Assembly (NCBI RefSeq): GCF_026210795.1
Contig: NC_089432.1
Coordinates: 5,084,001 to 5,148,000 of the forward strand
Direction of reading: 5' to 3'
DNA length: 64,000 bases
From: Rhizophagus irregularis
Lineage: Eukaryota
The notes under the pieces are model-generated. The model was not told the origin of the DNA and did not search any database. It worked only from the letters and a program-made list of their open reading frames with translations. The translations under genes and the position numbers were made by a program. Shown piece by piece: positions 18,346 through 50,807 of this stretch; position 1 is the stretch's first letter, and each line of letters starts with the position of its first letter.

Positions 18346-20837
18346 TATTTATGTAAATTTATTTGTAATCTGTAAACAATTTCAGTTATTTATTAATAAA
18401 TCATTTGTATTATAAATGTAGTGTATACATCTTGAAATGTTTAATTTATAACTATGTTAAATATATTTACAGATAAATTTATATGGCAAATCAGCATTAA
18501 TTAATATTATTAAAATTTCTTGTAATGCGACATTAAATGTTATTTTATGGGTAAAATCATCATGTATTTTTTTAAAGAGTTATATTTTTGAAGTTAGATT
18601 TTTAATTTATTACTAAACTATTGGGAAATTTACTTACCTAAATAAAGGATGAAATTAACTATAATTACTATATTTAATAATTTTATTCATACATTATATT
18701 TTTTAAATTACCAGTACTCTCAAAATTGACCAGTAAAATTTAACACAGAACATTTGATTTTAGACTATTTATTTGCACAAAATAAGTCAACAAAATTCAC
18801 ACTACAAGTAATACATGATTTTCACTAAAAAAATTGATCATTGATCAGTTCATGTTTAATGTTATCTGATAATATGATCAGATGCATGTTCGCATGAACA
18901 TATTTTACCGTAGTTTTAGATTTGTAAGTTTTATCAGACAGTTAATGTCTAAATTAAAAATTGTAATACTGTATGGGAAAAGAATAATCATGATACTAGT
19001 TTTCATATTGACCAAATATTTTTATTCCAAAATTTTCTTTCTTTTTTTTTTTTTATGAAAAAGTGCATTTTTGTTCGGTCTCTGAAACTTAAGGAAATTC
19101 CAACCTTGTATTGTAATTTTAATTTTAAAAATATAGCTTAAACGCCAAAAAAATATCTAAATTTAATTGATATGAGATGTATTTTGTACTGTTGATTACA
19201 TGTGATATAATGGGATATTTTTTTGCTTTTAAATTAATTGCAAAAGTAAATGCTATTACTAAATTTTTTAAAACTTCATTTGGCAGGTTTTGGCCAGAAA
19301 CATCAATTTTTACCGGCACTATATTTTTAATGCTGGTTGATCGTCATAATTTCAGCCACCGGTGATCATCACCCCGGTGATAGTTAGAAAAATTCTATAA
19401 TAAACGTTTAAAGAAAGTTTAAAAAATTTCTTGGGGTGTATAAATTTGATGAGTAAACTTGAAAAGAAACTCTCAAATAAAAATCATGAATTAGAAAATG
19501 AAATCGATTATCGAAGATTTTTTCAACTGAAGTTAAATCAGTTTCAGAACACTGTGGAATATTGGACTGTAAAGTTTCAAATTATTTTTCATAACTTATT
19601 TGGATTTTTGAGGCTGATTCCTATAAAAAAGGAAAATTAAAAAAATTTAATTAAAAGCTTTGAATATATTTTTTTCAATATTTGGGATTTCCGGTTTTCA
19701 TGTTGAAGCCGATTTCCTAAAAAAGAAAAAAAGGTCAGAAATGATTTCTTTTAATAGTCTAGAATTCATTCTTTTGAAACTTACCTGGGATAAAAAAAAA
19801 ATTTTTTTTTAAACCATAACTTGGAAATCCAGCGCCCATTTCGGATCATTTCGGAGCTGGTTTCTCTACAAAGATGGATTTGGTAAAATATACTCAGCTG
19901 AATGGTCAGTTCCTTCTTTTTTTAAAAAAAGATAAATTATTTCAATATTACAGTATAAAAATCCTTTTCTTTCTATGCTTTTATTCAAAAATAAAAGTAA
20001 ATTGATAAGTAAAAAAGATGATAAAAAATTAAGAATTTCCGATTAAAAGAAAAAGTTTTTTTTTAAAAAAAATTTTGGTCATTGACATGTTAAAAAAGGA
20101 CAAAAATTAGTAATAAAAAAATAAAAAATCAAATCGTTTATTAAACGTTTCTTCGAAAAAGTTCAAAATTCTAAAAGAGGAAAAGTTTCGATAAAGTTTA
20201 AATTTTAAAAAGGGGAAAGTTTTGATAGTTTAAAATTTTATTAAATGCTATACATAGTGACTAATTTAATATAAATAGCGAAAGGTTTCAAAATATTATT
20301 TATTTATTTTATTTTATGTGAAGAATGGCAGGATCATCAAAAGGGCAAAACTAACTTATTAAGGAAAAAAACCCAAGGTTTCAAAATATTTATTTTATTT
20401 TATTTATTTTATGTGAAGCCAGACAGCCAAATAAACAGGATAAACTCCCATCGGAGTACAATCCTAATTCTTGTCATCATCCCGCCAGGAACCAATAAAA
20501 GCTCAAGGAAGGACCCTAACTTCTAATTATATAAGAGGGCCATAGCTTATCTTACCGCTACGGCCAACGTAAGGATAAGGAACATCCATGATAATAAAAG
20601 AAAACCATAACGAATGTAAATATATAACAATCTATATAAAAAAAGATCCATATTTTTCTTTTGACCAAAAGGCTACCAACCGTAAATACTGTCATGGTTG
20701 GAATGATTCACACTATTCTAAATTGTTATCTAAAAAAAAGATAAAAAAGAAAACCAAAAGCATGATAGCATATACAAATTAAGAAAAGAAACCTAAATAT
20801 AATAACGAAAATAATTGACTCTAAAACTAAAAAAAAA

Positions 20838-22876
20838 TTATATATTAGCAGAGGAACCTGAAGGATCTGCTTCTGAAGAGTCGTCAGCTTTAGCAGGGAT
20901 GTAACGCCTTCATTTTAATCGATCAATGGAACCATATATGGGTATGGGTAAAGTGTGATGTAGTAAGACGTTTGTATGGACGTCTTTCGATTTCCTTGGT
21001 ATCATCAGAAGTAATGACATTCGAATCCTATTGCGAAGGATTGTTAATATAATATCTTCCGCCTTTAGAAGGAACGTAAAGTTCATCATTCGTCATAGGT
21101 GGGATAACAGATATGCTCTTTCCAAGATTAAAGGCATCGTTGAAGGTGGTCATTTCTTGGTAAAGTTTAAGTTGGAAGTTAATATTACCTTCCATCATGC
21201 TATATCGTGAAGCGAGATTCGACATATTTTGGTGGTGATACTCAGATCGTAAAGAATGCCATTTTATGGCTCAGTTATGGCATTCGTAATGTTTAACACT
21301 TGTGCCGTGTAGGGCAGCTTCTTGCTTTCCTTTCCCTTTAATAAGGTCTTGAATACGATCATTTTCTTTGACAAGCAATTGTTGACGTTCCTCAAGAGAT
21401 GAGCGTGAAGGAGGTGGTGTTGATTTACGTTCAAGATCCAACTTATACATATAAGTAAACCATTCGCGAGATCCAGGAATAATAAATTCACCTGAGGCCG
21501 TATAAAGAGGCTTCTTAGGAATAATGTCTTTGTATTTTGACGGAAAAAACCCATTCGGGATAGGGTTATATTGTTCGACCGTATAAATTAAAAGGTCTTT
21601 CTTGGGAGTAATCTCCTGATTGTAAGGAATCTTGAAGCCATAGTCGGGATAATCAAGACCATGGGTGTATTGAAGATATTTAATCGGCTTGTAGATATAT
21701 TGCGATGGTAAAAATAAAAACCGGTAGCGTTGAGCAGTAATCAGCTGGTGCTTCATTGTATCAAGGCGATTATGTTCCTTGGCATGAAAAATTCATCGGC
21801 ATGCCCTATGATGGCGTATTTTCTGCGCTTTCGCTATTTTAGCATTTTTACTACGCGTAACTGAAAAGGTGTCCAGCCATTTACGATACATTTGCTTATT
21901 CACATGATGTATAACTAAGCCTTTAGTACGAGCAAGATAAGATTCCTTATAACTAATTCCCAATCGTTGGGATACAACATCTTTTTTCCATCTGCAATTC
22001 CATCTGTCATGTAACAAATTAGCATGTGAGCGCTTGTCGTTGACCGGAGTAGTAATGGTTGAGGTGAGGTCCTGACGTCCATGATTTCGGACATTATTGA
22101 AAGTATCATTACGAAAGAAAAGTTGTTGATGCATAACACAGGAGCGTCTACATTGAGACATAACAAAGGGGCTAGGAACTTGACATTTATTACAAGGGTG
22201 TAAAACGGTGAATGTGATGGTTGTTGAGAACAAGGGATATATTCCAAAATGAAAATGATATTTCTTATATGTGAAATTAAAAAAAGTACGAGTCGTAGTA
22301 TTATGTTCACGTAAATTATTAGCACGTGATGAAATCATTTCTTTACGAGCCAATAATCTATCTCGAATAAAAGAAAAAAATTTTTGTTGTATTTTGCGAG
22401 GTAAAACTCTTTGTGAAGAAAAAAAGTGTGTAAGCATACAACTAATTCTATATTTGTCATTCAGTGTTGAGCTCGTGTTGTGATAAAAGATAGGGGTACT
22501 TTTCATATGATAATCATTTGTGTAAATTTTAAGATGAATATCATTGGTGTTTTGAGGTAGATCATTTAACTTGAAAAAGTAACTTCTTGATCGTCTGATT
22601 TCATAAATCTTGTTGTATCCAGCCCTATTTGGACGGGTCACGTGAAATTTAGAAAAACGGAAATTTTCCCACCGGCGAAGAAGAGGAAGAAGGTTTATTA
22701 AAAGGTTTTTTACTATGAGAAGTGTAAGAAGGAGTTGAAGGAGCGTGAGATATAATATCTTTACGAGTAGAAATTTTGTCTAAAACTCTTTTATTAGAGT
22801 GTTGGTTAAGGTTAGTGAAATCATTATTTGGTTTTTCGTAACTTTCATAATCGTCTATGCGAAGAAAAGAGGACAT
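20838..22876 (-). pseudogene. Unit B ORF: basic protein of unknown function, ~680 codons, broken by stops and frameshifts
   Basis: ORF pieces 22649-22918, 21793-22641, 21271-21756 and 21028-21225 are collinear with the unit A protein; the last three share one frame and are separated by single stop codons. No introns are needed. Confidence 0.8.
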
Positions 22877-23505
22877 ATTTCCTTGGGTTTGGGTATAATA
22901 AGAACAGTAAAACCTCATCTTATGCCCGAGGCACCCTTCCGGGCTTCTACCTCTTAAGAGTGTTTATAAAATAAAACTTATAATGAAACCTACGCTATTT
23001 ACTGTGGAAAACTAACAAAAATAAAAAAAGGGGAAAGAGTTTTTTTTTTTTTCCTCCCAAGGTTTCAAAATATTTATTTATTTATTTTATTACTAAAAGA
23101 GTGTTAGAACCCAGACTATTACAAATAAAAGAAGGAAGAGTTCAAAAAGACTTGAAACTAATATATGTGTATAGACCTTTGTTCGTCATCCCCTACGGGA
23201 CCCCACTCTTCGATCTGTACTATTTGATAAAGTAGGACTACGCTAAAAAATCAAATGGGAACAATCAAAAAGCTAATCTAAAAAAAAAGAAAAGTTAGTT
23301 GATCCGTATTTTTCTTTTGGCCTAAGCCACCACCTGTAAATACTGTCATAGGTGGAATGGTAAACACTATTCTTATTGTATATACTATCATTGTAAGTTT
23401 AAAAAGATAAAAAAAAATAAGAAATAGACAACGTCTATATATAAAAATGATTCCAAAATAATGAAATACTAATCTATGAATTCAGATATGAGAACATTAA
23501 TAAAA

Positions 23506-25147
23506 TTATTTAGACGATCCTGCCTGCTCAGAATCAAGAGCTAAAGGAGTATCTAGGCGAGAGCGTTTACGTATGCCATAAGAACTCGAGTTATTATCAA
23601 AGTTGCGATCATTATGTTTCGAAGGACGGTATTCAATTTCTTTGGTGTCATCGGACGTGGATGACTCGGTAGGGAGTGTATTATCCTTATAAAAGAATAC
23701 TGATCGTGTGGTAATACACTTTAAACTAAGAGGAGCTAATACGCCAGGGTAGTTAATAAAAAAAGAATCTATTTCCGATTGTAAGAGTTTCTTCTTTTTG
23801 CTTTTCTTTTTCTTGGAAGGGGTAATAGGTTGAGAATTTTTCATATTAACATGATAAACATCGCTCCACCTCATTAAATCAGACACTTGACGTTGTCAAT
23901 ATTTAACGTTTTTAGAACTAGTGCCATGGTATAAGGCTAAATCATGAATTCTAATATCTTCTTGTATTATAAGATCGGTTATTTCCTTTGAACGTTCTTC
24001 TAGATGCTGTTGATAACGAACTCTAGAAGCTTCACCTTCAACAGTAAGTTCATCAATTCTAGCGGTAAATTTAGCATCATCTGCTTTTCTAAGGCGTTCA
24101 TCATGGGTATCTAAATCCAATTGATACATATAAGTAAACCATTCCCTAAAGCCAGGGCAATAAATGAACCAAAATGATCATAAATAGGATCAGGTGGTAT
24201 TATATCTCGATATTTGAGAGGAATAAACATGTCCGGAGTAGGATTATAAGGAGCGACCGTATATAATATTTCATTGTTAAGAACTGAAGCTGAAGTCGTA
24301 GCTGTGGCAATGGAAAAATTACTTGTAGCCTTTGGTCGGCTGGTCGTATTCGTATTAGTACCAAAATAATGAGGAATAGTAAAATTATAATCCTTTTGTT
24401 TGGGAATATCAACAGTTTTCTTATAACGTAAGTGTTTGAGAGGAGTCGTAAATTTTTGAGATGGTAAGAAAAGGAATCGTCCTTTTTTAGCCGTGGCCAG
24501 TTTCGTTGATGTACTGGAAACAGCTCCTGGTTTAGTAACTTCTTGTGATAAGATACGATGACAAGAGCGTTCGAATCTAATTTGCTGCTTTTTAGCTGTC
24601 CTCAGATTAGGACTTGGAGTTAGTTGGAAGTTATTCATAAGTTTGTGATAAATGTGAGTACGTCCAGGTCTGAGTTTACGATTTGAATTGCAAACAACAT
24701 ATTTTGAGTTATAAGAGATGCCCGTTCTTGAGGAGAATATCGATTTTGATTCTTTTTTTATCCATCGGTCAAATGTCAAATTAGCGTGGAACTGTTTATT
24801 TTGATGTTGATTACTACATGTAAAATCACCATGTTCGTTTCGTACAAAAGCTATTGCAGCTGGGTATTTGTGAAAAAAATGTAAGCCACATCCATATCTC
24901 TTATTAAACATTACTATAGGACAAGGAACCTCACAAGGTCGAGGTAGAATAGATAAGCCTTTTGTCTCAATCATATGGTCACAAGGGATAAAGATACCAA
25001 AATGAAATCTATATCTTTTGTACGAGAAATTAAAAAAAGTTTTCATTGTTGTATTCTTATTGTTGATTTTACTCTCACGTGACTTGATAAACGTGATTCT
25101 ATCTAATAACTTTTGGCGTATCATATCAAAATATTTTTTTTGAATAC
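23506..25147 (-). pseudogene. Unit A ORF, C-terminal part (paralog of unit B protein)
   Basis: Pieces 24111-25124, 23896-24129 and 23506-23886 share FFNFxYKxYxFHFGI, HANL..DRW, GISY, FLFLPSQ, KYxDIIP, HGTS and TSDDTKEIE with unit B; one frameshift near 24155 and one internal TGA. Confidence 0.82.
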
Positions 25148-28030
25148 TGTTAATCGAATAATCACATGACCAGTGATCATGTTACGAATGTTACGAATGT
25201 TACGAATGTTGCAAATGTTACGAATGTTTAATATGTTTAACATGTTAAACATATGCAACATATTAAATATATAACACATATTTAACATATTACATTTGTT
25301 AAATATATAGCATTTATTTAATATTCTTAACATGATTAGCATAGAATTTATTGTTATAAATACATGCGTTCTAAATCAATGTAATAATAGATAATTCTGT
25401 TATATTTTAATAAAAAGCATTTATTAAATAAATTACATCAGGAAGTCACGGGAAAAATATTCATCAAATGTACATCGGTCACTTGATGTACATCATAAAG
25501 AAACGCTGAACATCGGACCCTGCAATGTACTACTGATGTCACAACATTTGATGTTCATCGCCAAATTAAAGATGTTCATCACCTGTACATTACGATTAAT
25601 TAACACATTTATTAATGATATTAAAATACATGCGTTATTTATTATTATACTATCATTATACTATACAAATGTATTATTAACTAATTAATATAATATCTAT
25701 GGCTATTTTAAATCTATATAATATGTTAAATACTAGATAAAAATTGATTTCCAAAATAAACCTATAAAGAAAAAAATGAAAATGTTAATAAAACTTTTCG
25801 TTAAAAATAAAAAAAAGTAAAATTCGAAGGGATATATATACCTTCGAAATAGGATCCAGTCGCGTCTTGGACCTACAAAAGAAAAAAAAATGAAACCGTT
25901 AGTAAAAACGTTTCGTTAGAAAAAATAAAAATTTGAAGGTACTGTATATACCTTCGAAATTCCATATAACTGAGTGATCCCAGATCCTACAAAAAAAAAG
26001 CAAACAAAAAACGTTAGTTTACGTTTCTAAAAGAAAAATAAAAAAATCCAAGTTTCGAAGTGAATTGAAATCTTCGAAACTTACCAATCCGTTAAGATTC
26101 GTCTTCTTTTTCCGTTCTTCAGAAACCCACCCAAGATCTAAAAGAAGAAAAAGAATTAGAAATAACAAAAAAAATTAAAAAAATTAAAGATTCGTATTGT
26201 CCTTACGAATCTTTGGGTTTTCTGTTCTTCAGAAGCCCACCCAAAACCTAAAAATCAAAGAAAAGAACGGTTAGAAACCGTTCATAATAATAAAATAAAT
26301 AAAAATAAACCAAAGATTCGTACTTACGAATTTTGGTTTTTTCCATTTTTCAGAAGACACCCGAGAAACCCAAAACCTAAAAATAAAATAAAAAGAACGG
26401 TTAGAACCATTCATAGTATTAAAAAAAATAAATCTAAGGTTCGTAATATAATACTTACGAACCTTAGTTCTCCATTTTCCGTTCTTCAGAAGACCACCCG
26501 ATGGAACCTATAAAAAATAAAATAAAAAGAACAGTTAGAACCGTTCATAGTATTAAAAAAATAAATCTAAGGTTCGTAATATAATGCTTACGAACTTTAG
26601 TTTTTTGTTTTCCGTTCTTCGGAAGATCACCTGACAGAACTTATAAAAAATAAAATAAAAAGAACGGTTAGAACCGTCCATAGTATTAAAGAAATAAATC
26701 TAAGATTCGTAACTGAATATAATACTTACGAACCTTAGTTCTCCATTTTCCATTCTTCGGAAGCCCTTTCGAGACACCGAACCTATAAAAAAAAGAAAGG
26801 AACGGTTAGTAAACCGTTTCATAATAATAAAAAAAATAAAAAAAAACCAAGATTCTTACGAATCTTGGTTCCTCTTTGCGAAATCCCCTTCCACCATCCC
26901 CCTTTCCCAGTTTTTTACCTTAAAGTCTGGTTTCGTGAACAAGCTGGCGTCCTACAAAAAAAAAACAATGAAAAAGAAACGTTAGATCGTTTCTTAAATT
27001 AAAAATAACAAAAAATCTTCCACTTTCCAGTTTCTTACTACCTTAAAGTCTGGTTTCATAGTATTCAAGCCAGCGTCCCCCTAGTAAACGTCCTACAAAA
27101 AATAAAATAATAAAGAGAAACGTTAGTTCGTTTCTTAAATTAAAAATAACAAAAAATCTTCCCCTTTTCAGTTTCTTACTACCTTAAAGTCCGGTTTCAT
27201 AGTATTCAAGCCGGCGTCCCCCTAGTAAACGTCCTACAAAAAATAAAATAATGAAAAGAAACGAAAAAAAAAGATAAAATTAAAAAAAAAATAAAAAAAA
27301 AATAAATTAAAAAAAAGTAACGAAACTTACAGGTGTGAGAAAAAGAAGAGAACGAAAGGGAAGTGAAGGACGAAAGGAAAGGGAAGGATATAGGAGAAGG
27401 ACGAAAGGACAAGGGGACGAAGGGAAGTGAAAGAAAGGGAAAAAAAAAGTTTAAAGTTTTTTATTAGACTTTTTTTTATCAAAAAAAAGATCGATCGGCA
27501 AACTGATCACATGATACCGATCAATACTAACTGAAATTTACTAGTTAGTAATTATATTTTTATTATAGCAAAGATATGTACATTGAATATTTATTATTAA
27601 ATGCTGCACATCATGATAAAAATTTCATTGATGATGTTCATTAATGTTAAATATTACTTGTACATTAAAAAGAATGAATATTGCAATGTACATGATTTGC
27701 ATAAATGTATATGTAATGTACATTTTTTTCGTAACTTCCTGATGTATCTCATTGTTTATTTTATAGTTTGTTATATTTGTGAGTCAGTATTTGCGTCTGA
27801 GTGTATATGCCCGTGTGCAATACCGTATTCGCATTTGACTGAAATTTCATTTTATTTTATTGTGTAACCTTCGTAAATCGATCGACAGTGATACATTTAC
27901 TAATAATTTCATATAGTTTATTTCACTTTGCGTTCATTAACATTATTTAATATTTATTTTATTCATAATCCTTCTGCTTACCATACACCCATACGCTTAT
28001 TTTTATAAGCATACAAGAACTGGCATAACA
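25148..28030 (+). repeat. 5' LTR (572 bp plus a 2.3-kb TIR-element insertion)
   Basis: 25148-25435 and 27747-28030 match the 3' LTR almost base for base; contains GTTACGAAT 9-mer repeats. Confidence 0.95.
25436..27744. mobile_element. Non-autonomous TIR element with TA target duplication (Tc1/mariner-like or another TA-TSD family), 2309 bp
   Basis: TIRs CATCAGGAAGTCACGGGAAAAAT / ATTTTTTTCGTAACTTCCTGATG flanked by TA. The empty site AAATTATCTCATT is visible in the 3' LTR at ~35388. No transposase ORF. Confidence 0.92.
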
Positions 28031-28033
28031 AAT

Positions 28034-28051
28034 TGGTGCCTTCTGCCAGAA
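28034..28051 (+). promoter_or_regulatory. Primer-binding site, tRNA-His-like
   Basis: TGGTGCCTTCTGCCAGAA(TC) begins 3 nt after the 5' LTR and is complementary to a ...GGCA-CCA acceptor end as in eukaryotic tRNA-His. tRNA identity is recalled, not searched. Confidence 0.7.
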
Positions 28052-28627
28052 TCCCGATTTCCCATTATTTTAGTCCCCTTTTATGTTCTAAAACCATTTC
28101 AATCGCAATGATATACACGACGCTATACATAGACAATTAGGGCTAAATAACATAACCACTTATCATCGTGATCTATCGTGTAATAATTGTTACCCATCTG
28201 AGATCCCCTTAACCCCACTTTTCAACACTTTTTGGATTGGATTTCTTCTAATTATCCAGTTATAGAATATACCCGATACACTCAACAATACTTTGAAGAG
28301 GTTGCTTATTCAATCACTAACGCGGATATTGACAACGCCATACATAACCTATTGTTCAGTATCCGATACACTGATATAGAACCAATAGATTATACCCTTT
28401 TGCGTCATGATCTTATTAACGCCTATAATCTAACCAACAGTTTTTAGCAGGATCCTAACGAAGTCCTTTATCAAGTCAGTGAGACTACTACCTCACCAGA
28501 ACCTGAAGCTTTAAGTGATACAACATCAGAGAATTCTGAGGAAGAAATTCCCCATTTACATATTCCACTACCACCTATTTACAACACACCGAATAACCCA
28601 GCTCCAGTAATTCCACTGGTAATTAAT

Positions 28628-29695
28628 ATGGCCCAACCTAACCAGCAGGACTTTCAGCAATTACGAGCGGCAATCACAGCATTAACCCAGGTATTGCCGA
28701 ATACCAACAATGCTTTGGTCGGGAATACACAGGCCATTGCCAACCCGCCAAGACGAGGAGGAAAGGTGGCTGAACTGCCATCATTCTATGGAAGCAATCA
28801 GGACCCGGTCGCATGGTTCGAGGATTTTACTAGAGCTTGCAATGCTAATGGTATAGCAAATGGCCGTAAATTGGAAGTAGTGCCGGCCTATCTTAAGGGC
28901 GCTGCTTCTACATGGTGGAATGCTAATCAGGCGTTACCAAACAATAACCCTAATAAGATCACCGTGTGGACCGGCAATAATAACAATACCGATTTTATCC
29001 AGAATTTCCCAGCGGCTTTTAGGACTCAAACCCTAGTCAAAATCTGGACCACAGAACTAAAACAAAGGCGACAACAACCTGGCAAGGATGTAAATACCTA
29101 CGCCGCCGCCTTACAAGAACTATACCGAAGGGTAGAGACGAATGCTTTCGCCTATCTCGAAGCAATCAAGGCTTGGAAATTTGTAAACGGTCTATTGCCT
29201 GACCTATATGTCACCGTTAAGCCTCACAATGAACAAACATGGAATGGCGCGGTGGATAGAGCTAAAGCGTATGAGTTAACGCATAAGGATCAAGGCGCTG
29301 TCAGCGCATACCTCAATAAATTTACGCCGATGACAACTACTGACCATACCGGCGATTTACTTAAGGCCATCCAGGATTTATCTAAACAAGTGCAGTCGAT
29401 AGGTAATGGATATAGAGGCTATCGGAATAATAATAGTTTCCGAAATGCCAACCAGCAAACGGTCCAAACAACACAAGGTAGACCGAATCAGGTCGTATGT
29501 TATTCATGTGGAGAACCGGGACATATATCTAGGACTTGTCCGAATAGAAATAATGTTGCTGGACGTCCCAATAATATTCCGAGAAATAATAATACCCCAC
29601 AACCAACAAATACAAATGACCAACTTGCGCAGATACAACAATTGCTGGCCCAATTGGTATCGCAAGAAAGTACCGAAGACCAGCATTTAAACTAG
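28628..29695 (+). CDS. gag: Gag (capsid + CCHC zinc knuckle)
   Basis: 355-aa ORF with FYGSNQDPVAWFEDF, YLKGAASTWW, QQPGKDVNTY and CYSCGEPGHISRTC. Confidence 0.93.
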   Translation: MAQPNQQDFQQLRAAITALTQVLPNTNNALVGNTQAIANPPRRGGKVAELPSFYGSNQDPVAWFEDFTRACNANGIANGRKLEVVPAYLKGAASTWWNANQALPNNNPNKITVWTGNNNNTDFIQNFPAAFRTQTLVKIWTTELKQRRQQPGKDVNTYAAALQELYRRVETNAFAYLEAIKAWKFVNGLLPDLYVTVKPHNEQTWNGAVDRAKAYELTHKDQGAVSAYLNKFTPMTTTDHTGDLLKAIQDLSKQVQSIGNGYRGYRNNNSFRNANQQTVQTTQGRPNQVVCYSCGEPGHISRTCPNRNNVAGRPNNIPRNNNTPQPTNTNDQLAQIQQLLAQLVSQESTEDQHLN

Positions 29696-29728
29696 GAGGC
29701 GTACCTCAGGAGGGTGAGCGTACACGCC
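29686..29728 (+). promoter_or_regulatory. Putative -1 ribosomal frameshift signal (T TTA AAC plus downstream stem)
   Basis: Heptamer TTTAAAC is in the gag phase just before TAG; the -1 frame stays open into the protease ORF; GGCGT...ACGCC pairing follows. Confidence 0.75.
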
Positions 29729-32700
29729 AGACAACAATTCCCTCGAATTTGACGCTATTGGAAACATATCCCGCTACAAGAACTACCCGAAGTAAATCTA
29801 GACTTGATCTGACTATTGGAACCGTAAAGGATAAACCTCCGGAAGAAGAGATAATAGTACGAACCATACAAAGCTCTGGTAAATCTAAACAACCAATAAG
29901 GTCAACTGGAGTAAAGAAAGTCGAACCTAAGAAGGTGGTCAAAAAGAAGTCTGCCGCAGTAGCCCCAATTTACAAAATGATAGAACCATATACGCCGCAG
30001 CAGTTCTTTGATCAAAAGGCCGATATTACGAATGGCCAGTTGCTGGCAATGAACCCAAAGTTCAGCTTAACAGTGGCCAAACAGCTAAGAAAACCGGTTG
30101 TTAGGACAAAAACTGAAGAACAAGATAAAAAACTGGTTAAGAAAGATGATGAAATTCTGAATAATGGAAATGTTTCTGAAGTTGAAAATCTCATGCAGGT
30201 GGCTAATACCGCCGGACCGAATGATGATCGAACTTCGGCATTATATTGTGAAGCCTCGATTAAACACATAAGATTCCCGCTGATCGTTGATTCTGGATCG
30301 GCTGGAAGTATTATTTCCTTATCATTATTGAAAGATTTAGATATGGAAATAACGAAAGCCTCAAAAACTATTATGGTGAATGTAAATGGAGAGCGTCGAC
30401 GACCATTGGGCGCTGTAACTGACATACCGTTGAAGATACATGAATGCATCATTCCGGTGGATGCCATTGTTACCGATGCTAATTCATATTCTGCTATAGT
30501 CAGAAATGATTGGCTGCGTAAGACCAAGGCCGTTCTGGACTATAACAACAATCGGATGACCATCAAGTGGAAAGATCAGGTTTTAGAAGTGACCACCGAA
30601 TGTAGAGAAATGCCCCACCACATAACTAGCATCGAGATACCGAATATAGAAGCCGAAGAAGAGGTTGAGGATGAATCCGAAAAGGAAGTTGATGAAGAAG
30701 CCGTAGAAGAATCGGAAGAAGAATATGAAAGTGACGACGAGGAGACACAAGAGCAGCTATTCTGTAACGCCGGATATATTACTCAGGAAAAGGTGCAAGA
30801 AATCGAAGAAGAATTAAAAGAAGGAAATTTCGTCAGTAATGAATATTACTACCAGTATGAAGAAATTGAAAAAGGAAAATTTTATACCAGAAAATTGGAC
30901 GAAGAATAACATCGGAAATTCGATGATTTTATGGAACGATATCAGGATCTGTTTGCCTGGGATCCTAATGACTTCAGAAGAACATCGGTAGTTACACATA
31001 AAATCAATACCGGAGAAGCTACCCCGGTTGGACAAAGATTCTACTGAACATCTTATCAAAACCAGCTGTTCATAAAAGAAGAAATACAACGATTATTGAA
31101 CGCCGGTTTAATAACTCCATCAAAAAGTCAATGGACTTCACCAGTTGTAGTGGTGGAAAAAAAAACGGCAAGAAACGTCTTTGCGTGGATTATCAGAAGT
31201 TAAATCAAGTAACGAAACGAGACTGATATCCCTTGCCGAGAATCGATGACATGCTGGAAACGTTATCCGGATGTCAATGGTTTTCCTCCCTTGATCTTGC
31301 CAGCGGGTTTTGGCAGGTCAAACTTAGTCCGAAAGACAGGGAAAAATCGACGTTTATCACCCGTTTCGGAACCTACGAGTTTACGGTTATGCCATTCGGC
31401 CTATGTAATGCTCCCGCCACCTTCCAGCGCTTGATGGATACAGTATTATGGGACATATTGTGGCAATATGTTGTGGTGTACATAGACGATATTAACGTGG
31501 GCTCCAAGACGTTCGAAGAACACCTACAACATTTGGAACAGGTTTTTCTTCGATTAAAATTAGCCGGACTGAAGCTGAGTCCAGAAAAATGTTTCTTTTT
31601 TAAGGATGAAATCCCGTTTCTAGGACACGTTGTAAGCTGGAAGGGCATACAAACCGACCCTGAAAAATTAAAAACCATTAGGGAATTTCCCATACCAAGA
31701 GACTTGATGCAGTTGCGAGGATTTATCGCTCTAGCGTCTTATTATCGTAAATTTGTCAAAGGGTTTTCATCGATAGCCGAACCCTTGAATAGACTTTTAA
31801 AGAAAAACACCCCGTATATATGGAGTGACGAACAACATGATGCTTTTGAGAAGCTTAAAACATGTTTGATGACGCCTCCTATATTGGCTTACCCAAATTT
31901 CGAGAAGCCATTTATTCTTTATACAGACGCATCTACCTTCGCTTTAGGTGCAATTCTATCCCAGAAAGACGAAGACAAACGCGAATGCGTTATAGCATAC
32001 GCAAGTCACACTTTAAACAAGCATGAACGAAACTATAGTATAACAGAACTCGAGTGTCTTGCGGTAATTTGGTCAGTGAGACACTTTCACCAATATCTGC
32101 ATGGTCAGAAATTTACGGTGATTACGGACCACGCTGCGTTACGATATTTAATGAATTTATCGAATCCTGTTGGCAAACTCAAACGATGGTTAATGACTTT
32201 GAATGGCTATGAACTTGAGATAATAAACTGCCCCAGAAAACTTCACTCCAACGTCGATACATTAAGCCGAATAAGAACTTAACGCATCTTCGTTGAAAAA
32301 CTCTATTAACCACCCGATTTGCATATATACGACGCCGATTTATTGGATTACCCATATTTTTGACTCAACATGGATTTAAACACCTACTTCTCACTCATAC
32401 ACTTTTTGATGACACACTCAATGCCAACACACCTCGATACGCAGCAACATGCTTCTATTAAACGAAAATCAAGATATTTTATTATCTTGAATGATCAACT
32501 TTATAAAAAGAATAAAGTTAACCCCAATAGACCGATACGAGTTGCAAAAGAAAATGAAATAGAGGATATTCTATATCATATGCACTCAGATCCATTAGCA
32601 GGCCACTTTTCAATAGATGAAATGTATCGAAGGATAAAAATTTGATACTACTGGCCGCAAATGTTCAATGACGTTCGCCGATATGTGCGAACCTGTGATG

Positions 32701-33075
32701 AATGCCAACGAAGGGGCAAAAATCGCCGCAATGAACCTCTCCATCCGATAAAGGTCGGACAACCATTCGATAGACTAGGAATGGATATTGTCGGACCGTT
32801 GCCTAAGACGAAAAATGGCAACATGTATATTGTCGTTGCAACCGAATACCTGACCAAATGGCCGGAAGCCCGCGCAATTCCCAACGCTAAGGCATCATCA
32901 GTTGTCTCGTTTTTCTACGAAGATATTATATGCCGCCATGGATGCCCAAAAGAGCTATTAACCGACCGTGGGACGCATTTTGTAAACGAAATGCTAAACT
33001 CCTTATGCGAAAACCTTGGAGTTAAGCATAAATTGTCTACGGCGTATCACCCGCAGACTAACGGGTTGGTAGAGC

Positions 33076-33886
33076 TAGAGCTCTGAACAGGTCAGCCAAA
33101 TTCAGGTAACCTGACCTGACCTGACCTGAAATTCAGGTCAGGTATGAGATTTTTAAAAAAAATTCAGGTCAGGTATGAAGATTGACCTGACCTGTTGACC
33201 TGAAACTATTGATTCTACTATATAATAAAAGTGAGTTGCAGTATTGCGATTCACTTTTTTATATTGATTTTATATAATAATAGTGAGTTGCAGTATTGCG
33301 ATTCACTTTTTTATATAGATTCTATATAAAAAAAGTGAGTTGCGGTATTGCGATTCACTTTTTTATATAGAATTAATATAAAAATGTGAATTGCAATACT
33401 GCAACTCACTTTTTTTATACAAAATCAATATAAAAAAGTGAATTGCAGTATTGGGATTCACTTTTTTATATGATTTTAATATAAAAATGTTGAATCGCAA
33501 TATTTCAAGAAAAAACATTGCGAAAACGTTTTTTCATAATATTATATTAAAAAAATGTTTTGTAACGTTTTTTTTTTTGATATTTCAATAATAGCATTGT
33601 GAAAACATTTTTTTCATAATGTTATATTAAAAAAAACGTTTTGCAATATTTTTTTTCAATATTTTAATAAAAAACGTTGCAAAAACGTTTTTTTTCATAA
33701 TATTATATTAAAAAAAAAAAGGTTTGTACCGTTTTTTTTCAATACTTTAATAAAAATTTTTCAGGTTTCAGGTCAGGTCAGGTCAAACAGACAACCTGAT
33801 ATAACCTGACCTGACCTGACCTGAAAAAAAATTTCAGGTCAGGTTTATCAATTAACCTGACCTGACCTGACCCATTCGGAGCTCTA
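33076..33886. mobile_element. hAT-type MITE, 811 bp, inserted in the integrase
   Basis: TIRs TAGAGCTCTGAACAGGTCAG / CTGACCCATTCGGAGCTCTA; 8-bp TSD GGTAGAGC (33068-33075, 33887-33894); excision restores GLVERFNR. Contains (CCTGA)n subterminal repeats and two palindromic minisatellites. Confidence 0.94.
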
Positions 33887-34659
33887 GGTAGAGCGCTTCA
33901 ACCGAACGTTATGTGAAGCCCTTGCCAAATATGCCAATACAAATAAAGACGATTGGGATTTGTACCTATCATCTGTTTTATTTGCATACAGGACGAAAAG
34001 CCATAGCACCACACGGCATGAACCTTTCTACTTGATGTATGGCCGTGATGCTGTGCTTCCAATAGAATTCGCTGTTTCCACTGCGCAAAGTAAATGCGCT
34101 GGGGAAAATTTCCAGGATGATCTCTTTAATCAAATTCACACCCTTACTGGAAAGGTGATAGTTGATCGCCTTGAAACACAAGATAATATATGCAAGGCGC
34201 AACAAAGGCAGAAAGAGCAACATGATGCAGGTCTTTCCGAAGTGCATTTTAAAATCGGAGACCTTGTGTTGCTATACCAAAGTCAACTAAGAGGCAAGCA
34301 AAAATTCCAAGAAAGATGGAAAGGCCCCTATTATGTGCATGAAATATTAGGAAATGGCGCATATAAGTTGCGCACAATTGAAGGAAAGATTTTAAAAGTT
34401 CCGGTGAATTCGGAACGGTTGAAATTGTATCACCAACGCATATAGACTATCATGCATGAATGCATGATTGATGATATAATGAATGCATGCATTTAATGTA
34501 TGCTAAAAAAAAAAAAAAAAAATTTTTTTTATTTTTATATATATATATATATAGTTTATTTATTATTTTTTTTTGTTTGTTTATTTATTATTATTATTAT
34601 TTTTGTTTATTGTTTATTGTTTATTATTATATTTATATATTGTTTAATTTAAAAAAAAA

Positions 34660-35127
34660 ATGGCCAAAATAAATGCTTATCAAAGAATCTTGGAAGATTT
34701 GCGACAATTACAACCAACCGAAATTGTGGCATATCCGCCACCTTATACGATTACCGCAGGCTTGGAAGAAAAATTTGATTTAATCAATGCTGCCATAGAA
34801 AGGTCCAAGCGCATTGATGACCGAATATTAATGCTAGCAAATGTCTACTATTTAGGACATTTTCTGGAAGTAGAAATTCGGGATAATACAAGACGCGGTC
34901 AATTTCTACAACAATTATCTATACATTTCCGGACGATTGCTATCCGAACTTATTATATATTTGAGGTCTCCGGAGTTGAACAGATTATGAGAACAACCCA
35001 TACAACCCCCACTATGATCCGGAAGCTCAGTACGGCAGAATATAAGGATTTGGTCTTTAAATCCATCGAAATTTTCAACGGGATTGAAAATCTGGGAGGG
35101 AGTGGTGTTAATCGAATAATCACATGA
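34660..35127 (+). CDS. Extra 155-aa ORF of the Gypsy element, unknown function
   Basis: Uninterrupted ORF of normal composition after an AT-rich spacer; it runs through the PPT (GGGAGGGAGTGG, 35094-35105) and stops inside the 3' LTR. Confidence 0.7.
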   Translation: MAKINAYQRILEDLRQLQPTEIVAYPPPYTITAGLEEKFDLINAAIERSKRIDDRILMLANVYYLGHFLEVEIRDNTRRGQFLQQLSIHFRTIAIRTYYIFEVSGVEQIMRTTHTTPTMIRKLSTAEYKDLVFKSIEIFNGIENLGGSGVNRIIT

Positions 35128-35679
35128 CCGGCGATCATGTTACGAATGTTACGAATGTTACGAATGTTGCAAATGTTACGAATGTTTAATATGTTTAACA
35201 TGTTAAACATATGCAACATATTAAATATATAACACATATTTAACATATTACATTTGTTAAATATATAGCATTTATTTAATATTCTTAACATGATTAGCAT
35301 AGAATTTATTGTTATAAATACATGCGTTCTAAATCAATGTAATAATAGATAATTCTGTTATATTTTAATAAAAAGCATTTATTAAATAAATTATCTCATT
35401 GTTTATTTTATAGTTTGTTATATTTGTGAGTCAGTATTTGCGTCTGAGTGTATATGCCCGTGTGTGCAATACCGTATTCACATTTGACTGAAATTTCATT
35501 TTATTTTATTGTGTAACCTTCGTAAATCGATCGACAGTGATACATTTACTAATAATTTCATATAGTTTATTTCACTTTGCGTTCATTAACATTATTTAAT
35601 ATTTATTTTATTCATAATCCTTCTGCTTACCATACACCCATACGCTTATTTTTATAAGCATACAAGAACTGGCATAACA
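35106..35679 (+). repeat. 3' LTR, 574 bp
   Basis: TG...CA ends, preceded by the PPT, matches the 5' LTR. Confidence 0.96.
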
Positions 35680-36185
35680 ATACGACGTGGAATAACTTTT
35701 TGTGAGGAAAAAAAATGCTGAAGACCTTTGCTAATTTGATATTTGGCGTTCGGTAGTGCGCTTGTGGAATGATACTTAATAGGGGTAGTTGACATGAGAT
35801 AATCATTTGTGTGTATCTGTAAATGAAGTTGATTGGTGTCCAAATGGTGATCAACAATCTCAAAAAAGAAACTTTTTGAATGTCTAAATTCGTAAATCTT
35901 GTTATAACCGGCTTTGTGTATTCTGGTCACGTGAAATTTTTTAAAAGAAATGAGAAAAGAATTATCGACATTAGGTGGAGTCGTTGTTGAAGAAATGGGA
36001 GATATAGAAGAAAAATCTTTTAATGGATAACCATCATTATTATTATATGGAGAAACTTGAGAATCAATGTCTGTAGTTGAATAAGGAGAACTATCTTGTG
36101 AAAATGAAGGGTCATCTATACGAATAAACGCGTGTGTTGATGAAGATGAAGACCAGTCTATTACTATAGAATTTGAAGAAGTCAT
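35680..36185 (-). pseudogene. Unit A ORF, N-terminal part, cut by the Gypsy insertion
   Basis: MTSSN...FHVTRIHKAGYNKIYE...HFFSSQKVIPRR. Removing the Gypsy and one ATAC copy rejoins it in frame as ...VIPRRIQKKYFDMIRQKLLDR, matching unit B VLPRKIQQKFFSFIRDRLL. Confidence 0.85.
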
Positions 36186-37656
36186 ATTCCCTTGGGTGTG
36201 GGTAAAATACTAACTAAAAACCTCGTATTCAACCAGAGGCGCCCTCTTGGGCCTCTTCCCCTTTAGCGTTTCAAATCAAAACTGAAAAAAACTAACTAGC
36301 GCAAAAATTACTGCGGAAAATTAACAAAATGTAAAAAAAGGGGAAAGAGTTTTTTTTCCAAGGTTTCAAAATAAACTTTAGCCGAAATTTATTGCAATAA
36401 ACCATAAAATTCCACGTGACCAAATTTATATACATTTCAAATACTAAGAATTGCAAAATATATGAATTAAGAAATACTGAAATACATACAAAATGAAACA
36501 ATTTTGCTATATTTTTTGCATATATCAATAATATATATATTTTATTAGTAGTTTATTTCAGTATATAAAATTAAATATCTGATATGTTATTTATATTACA
36601 AAAATATTTGTTAAATCATTAGTAATTTGGAAATTAGAATATATTAGTGATATGTTTAACGTATTTTATGAAAATCAAAAGATTCAGCAAAGTAATTATA
36701 ATTACAATACTTAGTATATTATTGTGTTTATTTGATTTACCAGTATTTTCAAAATTGACCAGTAAAATTTAATCCTTTATTTTAAACTATTTATTTGCAC
36801 AAATACGTCAACGAAATTTACACTATAAGTAACTTAAGATTTTCACTAAAAAAAAATCGATCATTGATCAGTTCATGTCTGACAATATAATCAGACGCAT
36901 GGTCTTCTAATGTTTAATAGGGTTCCTTGCCTTTATCATATTTGTCTTTTACTTCCCAGATCCTCGGCTTTTCTTACTTTGCCTAATATTAGTCATCTTA
37001 CTCGCTTAATTTACTTTATTTTCTCTAGAGGTAACATCCGCCGCATGTATGGACATATTTTTTTTGTCTATAGGTTGTAGTTTTTTTAGACTGGTGGAAT
37101 TATTTCTAAGTTAATGTCTAAATTAATCATAATACTGCTAGCTTTCATATTGACCAATTATTTTTTTATTATAATTTTTTTTCTTTTTTTTATGAAAAAG
37201 TGCGTTTTTGGAGATCTAAAGGAAATTCCAAACTTGTAATTTTAATTTTAATTTTCTAAAAATGATTGATTTTCCAGGTAAACAGGAAGTAATTCCATGG
37301 AATAAGTAAAGTATTAAGCTAGTATAACCTTTTATGTATAATCTAAACGTTAAGGTGCTATGGAATCATATTGAGACACTAAAAGTGATTATTTTTTTTT
37401 CTTTAAAATCCGAAAGATAAAATGTTGTAAGTAAAAATTTCAACTGATCAGCGAATGATTACCTCACTAATTCAGTACACGTGATTTAAGTCAGATTTTT
37501 TGTCTAAATAATCGACCTGCATGCACATGTGTGTAATTTGTTTAATTTGCGTAATTTGTGTAATTGTATACCTAAATTAAATAAAAACTTTTTCCTCTTC
37601 TTTTCGTACTCGGATAAATATAACTTTTCCATAACAATATTATATACATATTCAAA

Positions 37657-39707
37657 ATGTCTGAAATGAACGAATGGGTTAAATGGATTGATGAAGCTAT
37701 TGCTAAAAAGCATATTAAGCATTACGAGTATAAATATTTTAAACATATTCAAGAAATTGGCACTGGTGGTTTCGGAAAGGTTTATCGTGCGAAATGGAAA
37801 AATTCATATCAATATTTTGCGTTAAAATCTCTTCTTAATATTGAAGAGGATGCTATTAAGGAACTTGTTCATGAGGTGAATATAAAATATGCATATTATA
37901 AACTTATTTATATATTATTTCTGATTTAAAAATTTATTTTATGTATAATTTATTTAGATTGAGCTTCAACGTGAAGTTACTTTCCATAATAACGTTATTA
38001 GCTTTCATGGAGTTACTATTTCAGATCAAGGTAATAAATAAAATGTTTTTTTTTTTAGAAAAATAATGTATGTTATTATATTACAATAAATTTAAAATTT
38101 ATCTTTTTTTTAGAGAATCAAAGTAACAACATTAAGAAATATCTTTTAGTGATGGAGTACGCTGATGGTGGTTCGCTTAGCAAGTATTTGAAAGAAAATT
38201 TTGAGAAACTTACATGGGAAGTTAAACTTAATCTTGCTTACCAATTGGCTAGTGCCGTATCATGCTTGCATGATGAAGACATAATACATCGTGATTTGGT
38301 AATTTATCAAATTTATTGATGAAATAATAATCATATAAATTATATTATTTTTACTATAACAATTTATATTTTATTTCTTTTATTATAGCATTCTAATAAT
38401 GTATTAGTCAATCAAAATACTATTAAATTGGCGGATTTCGGATTGTCAAAGAGAATCGAAGCGTCAACTAAAAAGAAAAAAGATTTATTTGGTATAGTTC
38501 CTTATATGGATCCAAAAAAATTCAGCAATAGATCATATTCTTTAAACAAGAAGAGTGACGTATACAGTGTAGGCGTACTTTTATGGGAGATATCAAATGG
38601 TAAGCCACCTTTTTATGTAGAAGGAGAGTCGTATGATTGTAGTTTAGCCTTCCAAATTGTGCAAGGTCATAGAGAAACTACTGTTCCTGATACTCCCATT
38701 GAATATGTTAAGCTTTATACTGGTAAGTTAACACTTTTTTATTTATTTTTAAAAATAGTATTATAATTGAAAATTTGGATTTTTTTTTAGAATGTTGGGA
38801 TGACAACCCAGATAATCGGCCATCTATTCAAGAAGTTGTTGAAAGATTAGATGGTATAATTAATCAAAAAACCGAAAATATTGATGAGAAAACTGATCAA
38901 TCATTTACAAATAAAAATATAGTTTTAAATAGTATTGAAGAATCATCACATGGAGAATTATCTCAGGTTATTCAAGAATTCAATAAAATGAATACAAAAG
39001 AAATAATGGGAACTATGACATCAACAAGTAATCAAATTATTAGCCAAAATATTTTACCTGAAAATGATTTAAGTGTAATAGTCAATAATATTACAGAATT
39101 TATTTTAGAAGTGCTGAATAATAAGAGAAATAATGATAAGTTAAGACAGAAAGTTATTGATTATTTTAATAATCAAAATATTAATCCACAAGAAATTTAT
39201 AATTGGCTATTTAATAATCAAAATTATAATTCAAATTCAATTTTTTTACTTGGATTTTTTAATCTTTATGGAATTGAAACAAGTGAAAATAAAATGATGG
39301 CTTTTGATTTATTTATTAATGCTTCTGAACAAGATCATACATTGGCACAATATTTTGTTGGTTTTTGTTATTATTGTGGACGTGGAACTTCACAAAACTA
39401 TCCATTAGCTTTTAAATATTATGAAAAAGTAGCTAATAAAGATTGTGCAATAGGACAGTTGTATACTGGGAGTTGTTATAGCAATGGTCATGGCATAAAT
39501 AAAGAACCAAAACTTGCTATTTATTGGTATGAAAAAGCTGCAAACAATGGGAATGTATTGGGCATGTCTAATCTTGGTTATTGTTATAAAATTGGAGAAG
39601 GTGTTGAAAAGGATATAGATAAAGCAATTTATTGGTATAAAAAATCTGCAGAACAAGGATATGAACGTGCTCAAAAATACCTAGAAGAATTAATGAAAAC
39701 CAAGTAA
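37657..39707 (+). CDS. Kinase + 4 Sel1 repeats, copy 4, intact, ~575 aa
   Basis: Exons 37657-37875, 37958-38030, 38114-38298, 38389-38722, 38791-39707 join in frame; GTGGFG, ALK, HRDLHSNN, DFG and SDVYS intact. Confidence 0.92.
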
Positions 39708-48789: not shown

Positions 48790-50807
48790 TTACATTAATT
48801 CTTCTAATCGTTTTTGAGCATATTCATATCCTTGTTCTGCAGCTTTTTTATACCAATAAATTGCTTTATCTATATCTTTTTCAACACCTTCTCCAATTTT
48901 ATAATAAGTGCCAAGATTACACATGCCCACTATATTCCCATTATTTGCAGCTTTTTCATACCAATAAAAAGAAAGTTTAGGTTCTTTATTTATGCCATAT
49001 CCATTACTATAACAACTCCCAGTAGACAACTGTCCTATTGCATAATCTTTATTAGCTACTTTTTCATAATATTTAAAAGCTAATGATTTATTTTCTGAAG
49101 TTCCAAGTCCAAGATAATAACAATCCGCAACATAAAATTGTGCCAATATATGATCTTGTTCAGAAGCATTAATAAATAAATCAAATGCCATATTATAATT
49201 TATACTTGTTTCAATTCCATAAAATTTAAAAAATCCAAGTAAAAAAATTGAAATTGAATTATAATTTTGATTAATAAATAGCCAATTATAAATTTCTTGT
49301 GAATTAATATTTTGATTATTAAAATAATCAATAACTTTCTGTCTTAACCCCTCCCTCTTTCTCTTATTTAGCACTTCTGAAATAAATTCTGTAATATTAT
49401 TAACTATTACACTTAAATCATTTTCAGGTAAAATATTTTGGTTAATAATTTGATTACTTGATGTCATAGTTCCCATTATTTCTTTTGTATTCATTTTATT
49501 GAATTCTTGAATAACCTGAGATAATTCTCCATGTGATGATTCTTCAATAGGATTTAAAACTATATTTTTATTTGTCAATGATTGATCAGTTTTCTCATCA
49601 ATATTTTCGTCTTTTTGATTAATTATACCATCTAATCTTTCAACAACTTCTTGAATAGATGGCCTATTATCTGGATTGTCGTCCCAACATTCTAAAAAAA
49701 ATCAAAATATTCAATTATAAAACTATTTTCATAAAAAAATAAAAAATGTTAAACTTACCAGTATAAAGCTTAACATATTCAATGGGAGTATCAGGAACAG
49801 TAGTTTCTCTATGACCTTGCACAATTTGGAAGGCTAAACCACAATCATACGATTCTCCTTCTACATAAAAAGGTGGCTTACCACTTGATATCTCCCACAA
49901 AAGTACACCTACACTGTATACGTCACTCTTCTTGTTTAAAGAATATGATCTATTGCTGAATTTTTTTGGATCCATATAAGGAACTACACCAAATAAATCT
50001 TTTTTCTTTTTAGTTGATGCTTCAATTCTCTTTGACAATCCAAAATCCGCCAATTTGATAGTATCTTGATTGACTAATACATTATTAGAATGCTATAATA
50101 AAAGAAATAAAATATAAATAATGATAATAAATAATATAATTAATATAATAATTATTTTATCAATAAATTTGATAAATTACCAAATCACGATGTATTATGT
50201 CTTCATCATGCAAGCATGATACGGCACTAGCCAACTGGTAAGCAAATTTAAATTTATCTTCCCATATAAGTTTCTCAAAATTTTCTTTTAAATAATTGCA
50301 AAGAGAACCACCGTCAGCGTACTCCATCACTAAAAGATATTTCTTAACGTTATCATTTTGATTTTCTAAATAAATAAAGAATTTATTATTTTCAATTGAT
50401 TGTATTTAATAATACAAAATATCATTTTATTTATTACCTTGATCTGAAATAGTAATTCCATAAAAACTAATAATATTATCATGAAAAATAACTTCACGTT
50501 GAAGTTCAATCTACATATTAACAATAAAAAATTTAAAACGGAAATAACATATAAATTATGTTAGTATAATACATCATATTTTAATCACCTCATTAACAAG
50601 TTCCTTAATTGCTCCTTCATCAATATTAAGAAGAGATTTCAATGCAAAATATTTAGGTAAATTTTTCCATTTCGCACGATAAACTTTTCCAAAACCACCG
50701 ATACCAATTTCTTGAATATCTTTAAAATATTTATATTCGTAATGTTTAATATGCTTTTTAGCAATAGCTTCATCAATCCACTTAAACCATTCATTCATTT
50801 CTGACAT
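48790..50807 (-). CDS. Kinase + 4 Sel1 repeats, copy 5, intact, ~570 aa
   Basis: Exons 50807-50589, 50510-50438, 50365-50181, 50092-49759, 49691-48790 join in frame; kinase motifs intact. Confidence 0.92.

Follow-up and report, generated by a model that had tools for sequence, protein, structure and literature searches.

The window analysed in this study is a stretch of 64,000 nucleotides from the arbuscular mycorrhizal fungus Rhizophagus irregularis (NCBI RefSeq assembly GCF_026210795.1, contig NC_089432.1, positions 5,084,001 to 5,148,000 of the forward strand), in which two copies of a gene for a DUF8211 protein, here named copy A and copy B, lie head-to-tail on the minus strand. Both copies are pseudogenes. 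In the account that we tentatively favour, they are dead members of an intronless repeat unit that is restricted to the Glomeraceae and may multiply as a selfish or mobile unit of an unclassified kind. The descriptive part of this account is solid; the mechanism by which the unit would spread is one that we infer. A tblastn search with seven family proteins revealed exactly these two copies in the window: copy A extends from 22876 to 20844 and is followed by a stop codon at 20838-20840, and copy B extends from 36185 to 35679 and then from 25145 to 23509, with the ATG codons located at 22876 and 36185, respectively. These limits agree with those of a first-pass annotation, which was made from the DNA letters alone. 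The features of the locus are the following:

20645..23072, minus strand: unit A (leader, decayed open reading frame (ORF) and 3' element, around 2.43 kb); homology to unit B starts at 23072 and stops at 20645, and a 97.5%-identical set of contigs from read run X18 covers 20645-23022 only
23057..23070, minus strand: exact match to the 14-mer TTTTGAAACCTTGG, the 5' edge of unit A
22877..23072, minus strand: leader of unit A, non-coding and conserved, with the conserved blocks reaching the ATG
20838..22876, minus strand: remnant of the copy A ORF, a DUF8211 pseudogene with two frameshifts, four in-frame stops and the first invariant Cys changed to Phe; sister to protein P0003
20645..20719, minus strand: 3' element of unit A, with a stem-loop at 20676-20701
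36186..36373, minus strand: leader of unit B, identified by the leader alignment and an exact 14-mer at 36358-36371
35680..36185, minus strand: N-terminal 168 codons of the copy B ORF, up to the retrotransposon insertion; 91% identical to residues 1-169 of protein P0027
23509..25147, minus strand: remainder of the copy B ORF, frameshifted near 24157 and interrupted by a stop near 23896; groups with P0027 and P0018
23301..23373, minus strand: 3' element of unit B, with a stem-loop at 23330-23355
20280..20413, minus strand: a pair of short pieces from the leader start that no ORF follows, 92-97% identical to 23056-23091; one bears an exact 14-mer (20373-20386), the other a degenerate copy (20280-20293)
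25148..35679, plus strand: Ty3/gypsy-type long terminal repeat (LTR) retrotransposon in copy B, outside the DUF8211 family, recognised by its TG...CA ends, an ATAC duplication, LTRs and domains

State of the two copies

In copy A, the frameshifts are located near 22657-22668 and 20948, the in-frame stops are found at 21793, 21271 and 21028 and in the last piece, and the lost cysteine corresponds to a phenylalanine at core position 147 (F147). Copy B is broken by the insertion of the LTR element in addition to its single frameshift and stop. The first-pass annotation had spoken of 'reconstructed' paralogs, which is apt wording because both copies are pseudogenes. In the tblastn alignments, the ORFs are collinear with intact proteins and have no intron-like gaps, and copy B is 69-91% identical to P0027, a protein labelled PF26638. 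Contigs of the soil metagenome run X15 pass from 25147 directly into 35684 and beyond, and thus an uninterrupted form of copy B, or of a very similar copy, exists. P0002, a public gene model of 476 amino acids, aligns with copy A in pieces, its gaps falling at the breaks; it appears to represent the copy A locus, held open by predicted introns which skip the frameshift and the stops. The locus thereby illustrates how a public gene model can keep a pseudogene open by bypassing its breaks.

In the X18 version of unit A, 53 of the 55 substitutions are transitions, and eight of the 16 listed transitions lie in a CpG/TpG context. This version also has indels of its own (+1 at 20945, -1 at 21535 and -10 at 22591).

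The DUF8211 family

The first-pass annotation had assigned both copies to an unknown protein family. Most relatives, however, are already labelled PF26638 and carry the UniRef name 'DUF8211 domain-containing protein', so the family is catalogued, as a domain of unknown function only. The labelled proteins of Rhizophagus are homologous to the window copies, which differ from them in that both are pseudogenes. With the read-through of copy A (P0001) as query, 97 proteins were found at E<=0.001 among 1511 candidates, most of them labelled PF26638 (best E 5.8e-225), and a profile of 16 full-length members gave 84 protein matches. A profile search of 1.84 billion representatives yielded 591 matches at E<=0.001, of which 414 pass E<=1e-10 and 177 pass E<=1e-30; fragments are frequent among them. 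Every named match belongs to R. irregularis, R. diaphanus, R. clarus or Glomus cerebriforme, and a few are metagenome or read-assembly proteins without an organism name; no relative outside Rhizophagus and Glomus was found among the nameable matches in these 1.84 billion representatives. The searched library contained no literature on the name DUF8211, and the excerpts of PMC11075540 and PMC10234402 do not name such a family.

Family searches gave no further assignment. The local Pfam set was silent even on labelled full-length members and evidently lacks a PF26638 model; nothing scored below E 0.065 for nine window pieces, six relatives and the 16 aligned members. Among the scanned relatives and copies, no zinc-finger, RRM, LINE ORF1 (first ORF of a long interspersed nuclear element), transposase or other Pfam family was matched. 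The 16 members likewise gave no hit to any zinc-finger family model and none at E<=0.08 to RRM/CTD (C-terminal domain), zinc-knuckle or esterase domains. The best E value of a sequence-profile search against the PDB was 0.48, and the ESM Atlas search returned no usable match. The first-pass annotation had named, as an outcome that would overturn its proposal, a confident assignment to a LINE ORF1, transposase or host family already known; these searches yielded none.

Young, intact copies exist beside the decayed ones. Strain A1 has three proteins of 698 amino acids, encoded on separate contigs and 97.7-99.4% alike; of the two in DAOM 197198 (698 amino acids, 93.6% alike), one lies on a contig of 2.76 Mb and the other on a contig of 2.01 Mb; and one cluster comprises seven proteins of 700-701 amino acids, 89-99.6% alike. 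Except for one member of 701 amino acids, no indels separate the members of these groups. Many other family members, including both window copies, are fragmentary or decayed, and a metagenome scan revealed one divergent, decayed relative of 1.7 kb (L001). In a tree of 52 rows (10 of 62 were dropped for gaps), copy A is the sister of P0003 (support 100/98), and copy B groups with P0027 and P0018 (100/99). Since the two copies fall into separate, well-supported groups, the tandem neighbours belong to different subfamilies.

Among the public gene models of relatives, P0257 joins DUF8211 to a BTB domain, and in P0231 and P0305 the N-terminal blocks are partly duplicated, internally or in tandem; all three are probably merged neighbouring or tandem copies.

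Conserved blocks, composition and selection

The first-pass annotation had listed twelve ordered motif blocks shared by the paralogs, and a regular-expression search of the six-frame translation recovered ten of them as written in both copies. The other two, FHVTR..AGYNKIYE and C.VP.P.VM.....C..H, are also present in both copies, with a gap that is one residue longer than had been written. Two blocks of copy B bridge its breaks: HFFSSQ.V.PR.IQ is parted before its final Q by the retrotransposon, and YNP...FIPG.REWFTYMY.LD is parted between FI and PG by the frameshift. The blocks coincide with conserved columns in the alignment of the 16 full-length members, which has 67 invariant columns. These include KFHVT, FFE..D, TND, HFF, C223, C239, P242, P244, R251, C254 and H257 as well as K285, H288-A289, S306-R308-G310-S312 and Y334. 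Many arginine and lysine residues are invariant, and the invariant acidic residues of the family are three (E109, D112 and D128).

All 16 full-length members are basic and rich in lysine and arginine, as had been claimed, with an isoelectric point of 9.4-10.2 and a K+R content of 14-19%. The Cys/His cluster pointed out in the same annotation also holds throughout: all 16 members share C223, C239, C254 and H257, in the pattern C-x15-C-x14-C-x2-H. The idea of a zinc-containing nucleic-acid binder would fit this composition and the invariant Cys3-His cluster, as judged from the protein sequences. Classical zinc fingers of the C2H2, CCHC and CCCH types were considered and rejected, as there was no family match among the 16 members; the spacing is the one given above.

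The block-wise conservation had been taken as a sign of past purifying selection, with a ratio of nonsynonymous to synonymous substitution rates (dN/dS) near 1 as the result that would contradict it. Between copies A and B, dN/dS is approximately 0.27 (Nei-Gojobori method; 532 aligned codons; proportions of nonsynonymous and synonymous differences pN 0.39 and pS 0.70), and this value is, if anything, an overestimate because dS is near saturation. The two copies differ by 0.42/0.38/0.56 per codon position, and their amino-acid identity is 44%. The intact relatives are open and free of indels where neutral decay would predict 2.7-10 new stops; the neutral probabilities of gaining no new stop in the intact pairs are 0.064, 0.012 and 4e-5, based on a stop-gain rate of 4.4% of random substitutions, which was derived from the codon make-up of the window copies. 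Among young paralogs, the density of variable sites in the core is around half of that in the N-terminal tail (0.059 versus 0.129 and 0.089 versus 0.184).

Predicted structure

The model of a whole intact member is of mediocre quality (predicted local distance difference test (pLDDT) 64.7, predicted template modelling score (pTM) 0.34), with disordered termini and a helical region at residues 505-650 approximately. A model of the 291-amino-acid core, built from an uninterrupted stretch of copy A itself with an alignment of 62 relatives, is of alpha/beta type and scores considerably higher (pLDDT 88.6, pTM 0.73); in this model, the Cys3-His cluster lies in a loop region between two sub-domains. 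Foldseek searches against the PDB gave a best E of 0.68 for the whole protein and 0.69 for the core. In a wide VIA search, the whole-protein model matched only generic helical hairpins (residues 562-648, Z<=7.2). For the core, VIA-align against 48,161 chains reached a best Z of 3.4 with none at Z>=5, where models without a clear match usually reach Z 7-8 according to the tool, and a second look with VIA gave a best Z of 2.8. No entry of the RNase H fold was among the VIA-align rows for the core and no recombinase among the fold-search rows, and there was no Pfam match to tyrosine recombinases. According to the caveat of the tool, such an empty result neither excludes a family nor proves a new fold. 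A weak resemblance to small RNA-binding proteins of the Sm type recurred for the subdomain containing HANL..DRW and GISY (Foldseek probability <=0.38, Z 2.4-2.7); lying far below the threshold, this predicted similarity is a lead only.

An intronless gene for a basic orphan protein whose fold has no cellular neighbours might also derive from a virus, for example as an endogenised mycovirus nucleoprotein gene that was amplified later. We consider this origin very improbable: the core model had no match among the predicted viral protein structures of the BFVD library (best E 0.077), the 1.84 billion representatives contained no nameable relative outside the Glomeraceae records, and, to our knowledge, hundreds of copies with their own conserved leader are atypical of endogenous viral elements.

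Ends of the unit

The 14-mer TTTTGAAACCTTGG occurs three times as an exact match in the window, always on the minus strand (36371-36358, 23070-23057 and 20386-20373), and was absent from 100 shuffled sequences. In units A and B, it introduces a leader of approximately 200 nt, which is 73% identical between the two over 213 nt and contains long conserved blocks up to the ATG. Behind the third 14-mer, the leader alignment decays after around 50 nt, and there is no protein match below 20844. Gene models of another subfamily that read into the leader show a similar ...TYNTQD-M context. The proposal that the family lies in 14-mer-bounded units is therefore borne out for the leaders of A and B, whereas the distant relative L001 has no 14-mer upstream.

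The 3' element has a length of 75 nt and is 83% identical between A and B. Thus, both non-coding ends are more conserved than the ORF, in which the best coding block reaches 67% and the proteins only 44%. Each 3' element contains a stem-loop with a 6-bp stem (CCAACC/GGTTGG in A and CCACCT/AGGTGG in B) and an invariant loop of 14 nt, and the stem-loop of unit A is present in the predicted minimum-energy fold. Two of the six stem pairs are changed on both sides between A and B with pairing kept, i.e., they are compensatory. Homology between the units stops at 20645 and 23301, respectively; three X15 contigs diverge from the window at 23300, and the X18 contig ends exactly at 20645. The units start with ...TTTTGAAACC and end with ...ATA(T/C)GGATC approximately 30 nt past the hairpin, the distance from the 3' end of a unit to the next 14-mer is 231 and 259 nt, and the inter-unit spacers can be aligned only in the 3' element and at the leader start. 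The dead copies in the window add no function, and their value is anatomical: two distant subfamily members lying next to each other define which parts are kept, namely the 14-mer with its leader, the core of the ORF and the 3' stem-loop.

A conserved stem-loop near a discrete 3' edge could also be the recognition site for the reverse transcriptase (RT) of another element, which would make the unit a non-autonomous retroposon or the gene of a LINE ORF1/Gag-like chaperone whose transcript is copied in trans. The unit indeed matches one apparent intronless transcription unit, and the protein resembles LINE ORF1p and Gag-type chaperones in being basic, multicopy and intronless, in having a Cys/His cluster and in its predicted helical hairpin, which possibly self-associates. 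DUF8211 differs from these chaperones, however, as it has no partner RT ORF, no RRM, zinc-knuckle, Gag or ORF1 family match and no poly(A) or simple-repeat tail, is around twice the usual size and has a core that matches no solved structure. No ORF2 or RT follows either copy, and the only RT at the locus is that of the LTR element with its own LTRs and duplication. Furthermore, the copies retain the 5' leader instead of being 5'-truncated, and the only stray pieces are leader starts. We therefore regard this explanation as improbable. A LINE ORF2 in the same unit was ruled out, because only around 230-260 nt separate the 3' end of a unit from the next 14-mer.

How the unit may spread

In the mechanism that we propose, the unit comprises the 14-mer-led leader, an ORF for a DUF8211 protein of around 700 amino acids and the 3' stem-loop element. 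The protein is predicted to bind nucleic acid via its basic alpha/beta core, possibly with a metal in the Cys3-His cluster, and its helical hairpin at the C-terminus might mediate self-association. By working on the conserved ends of the unit that encodes it, in DNA or in transcript form, the protein would promote the copying of this unit to new places, often beside an existing unit. A selfish unit is preferred because decayed and young intact copies occur on different contigs, the ORF is intronless, the ends are conserved, the 3' edge is discrete and members of mixed subfamilies lie next to each other. The most specific form of this proposal is an autonomous selfish element of a previously unclassified type, in which 2.4 kb of DNA would encode a single protein with a predicted new fold and a putative Cys3-His metal site. 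This protein would recognise the leader with its 14-mer as well as the stem-loop at the 3' end of its own unit, and would copy the unit without a known transposase, recombinase or reverse transcriptase. Such a form of the proposal appears rather unlikely to us.

The same locus can be read as part of an ordinary lineage-specific host gene family, e.g., of a nuclear or chromatin regulator, that grew by tandem and segmental duplication. The leader would then be a promoter with a 5' untranslated region (UTR), the 3' element either a UTR or a signal for processing, and both dead copies routine casualties of duplication. This explanation is a quite possible one. Purifying selection and intact paralogs are what it would predict, the copies are in tandem here and have adjacent accession pairs elsewhere, the array lies within a cluster of kinase and Sel1 genes, the two distances between a unit 3' end and the next 14-mer are similar (231 and 259 nt), and no transposition domain, inverted repeats or target duplication were found. 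It accounts less well for an intronless ORF with very many fragmentary copies, for near-identical copies on different large contigs of one strain and for tandem neighbours that stem from different subfamilies. The unit ends, moreover, are conserved above the coding sequence in copies whose proteins are just 44% identical, and no relative was found outside the Rhizophagus and Glomus records.

Several observations weigh against a selfish or mobile unit. Pfam searches found no reverse transcriptase, DDE, tyrosine-recombinase or HUH/helicase domain in the DUF8211 protein, and a search for longer fused forms of the protein found none. No pair among the 25 longest of 27 inverted pairs, all of them AT-rich and 70-94% complementary, joins the unit ends as terminal inverted repeats; neither unit has a poly(A) or A-run after ...GGATC, where unlike sequence follows; and neither a target-site duplication nor an empty site was found for the DUF8211 unit. 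The sole empty-site evidence at the locus comes from the LTR element in copy B. Since L001 has no upstream 14-mer, not every family member possesses the leader. The stem-loops do not exceed shuffled sequence in stability (z = 0.30 and -1.49), and their covariation comes from two sequences only. As to expression, no run listed with unit sequence is recorded as RNA, and contig ends prove nothing according to the caveat of the tool; among runs guessed to be RNA, X17 gave no contigs and X18 only 20645-23022, from which neither transcription nor silence follows. Promoter and UTR function could suffice to explain why the leaders and 3' ends are conserved. Finally, the array is located inside a protein-kinase/Sel1 gene cluster, as is typical of host-family expansion, and R. 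irregularis has large expansions of ordinary host gene families.

Approximately half of the R. irregularis genome consists of repeats, most of which are unclassified (PMC11075540). Like the repeats called 'unknown' by annotation pipelines, the DUF8211 unit is multicopy and has no recognisable transposition domain; it differs from DDE cut-and-paste transposons in the absence of terminal inverted repeats. Helitrons, which begin with 5' TC and end with 3' CTRR preceded by a hairpin just before the 3' end, were rejected as candidates: there is no Rep/helicase match, the protein has around 700 amino acids, and the end motifs of the unit differ even though a hairpin is present. With the Sel1 and kinase families of R. 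irregularis, DUF8211 shares many paralogs, tandem arrays, frequent pseudogenes and a common neighbourhood. Those families, however, have well-known domains, and Sel1-repeat and kinase genes of R. irregularis have an exon-intron structure, whereas DUF8211 lacks introns as well as any known domain and possesses conserved unit ends. DUF8211, an orphan family of large size whose live copies show selection, whose unit ends are conserved and whose confidently modelled core has no solved neighbour, is a concrete candidate: it may prove to be a selfish element of a new kind or else a family of nuclear proteins peculiar to this lineage, in a symbiont that matters to agriculture.

Neighbourhood of the array

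The window is very AT-rich, with a GC fraction of 0.23-0.42 per 2 kb; no tRNAs were found in it, and no Rfam family was detected in the whole window at gathering level. Paralogs of kinase and Sel1-repeat genes enclose the DUF8211 array (2589-3797, 7818-8990, 16847-18142, 37624-39707, 48790-49701 and 52580-53245). A segment from the 3' flank of one Sel1 gene recurs at 18652-19132 and 36689-37263 with 76-77% identity in the same orientation, so that the repeats flank the array and the retrotransposon, and further copies of this sequence are found near other Sel1 genes. The DUF8211 array may have inserted into a member of the kinase/Sel1 series or taken its place. The ratio of observed to expected CpG is 0.71-0.72 in two Sel1 ORFs and 1.04-1.10 in both DUF8211 copies and the retrotransposon; copies A and B thus show no CpG depletion.

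The spacer directly 3' of unit B (23132-23305, minus strand) is a high-copy element. It has by far the highest summed depth of X19 contigs (1158 versus around 10-40 across most of the ORF), and its translation reappears as the read-through tail of P0020, a protein of another subfamily. The spacer has no Rfam match at E<=1 and no second copy within the window.

The retrotransposon in copy B

The LTR retrotransposon that splits copy B has a length of 10.5 kb, and the ATAC duplication is found at 25144-25147 and 35680-35683. Its LTR pieces are 99-100% identical, and it contains Gag/zf-CCHC, RVP_2 (protease), RVT_1, RNase H and rve (integrase) domains. The interior is broken: stops or frame changes separate the protease from RT/RNase H and the latter from the integrase, whose ORF is itself interrupted; the element may be a young insertion of a previously defective copy. 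An ORF of 159 amino acids without a Pfam match (34648-35127, plus strand) is located between the integrase and the 3' LTR.

Two inserts are present within the retrotransposon. The first one, of 2.3 kb (25441-27744), lies inside the 5' LTR and is rich in tandem repeats of 133 and 141 nt; the flanking parts of the 5' LTR overlap by 7 nt relative to the 3' LTR (35392-35398), possibly as a target duplication. The second one, of approximately 800 bp (33087-33887), divides the integrase ORF and contains tandem repeats of around 52 nt at 33227-33504. Its similar ends of 40 nt (33155-33194 and 33825-33864) hold a CAGGTCAGGT...ACCTGACCTG palindrome, and the insert looks like a small non-autonomous element.

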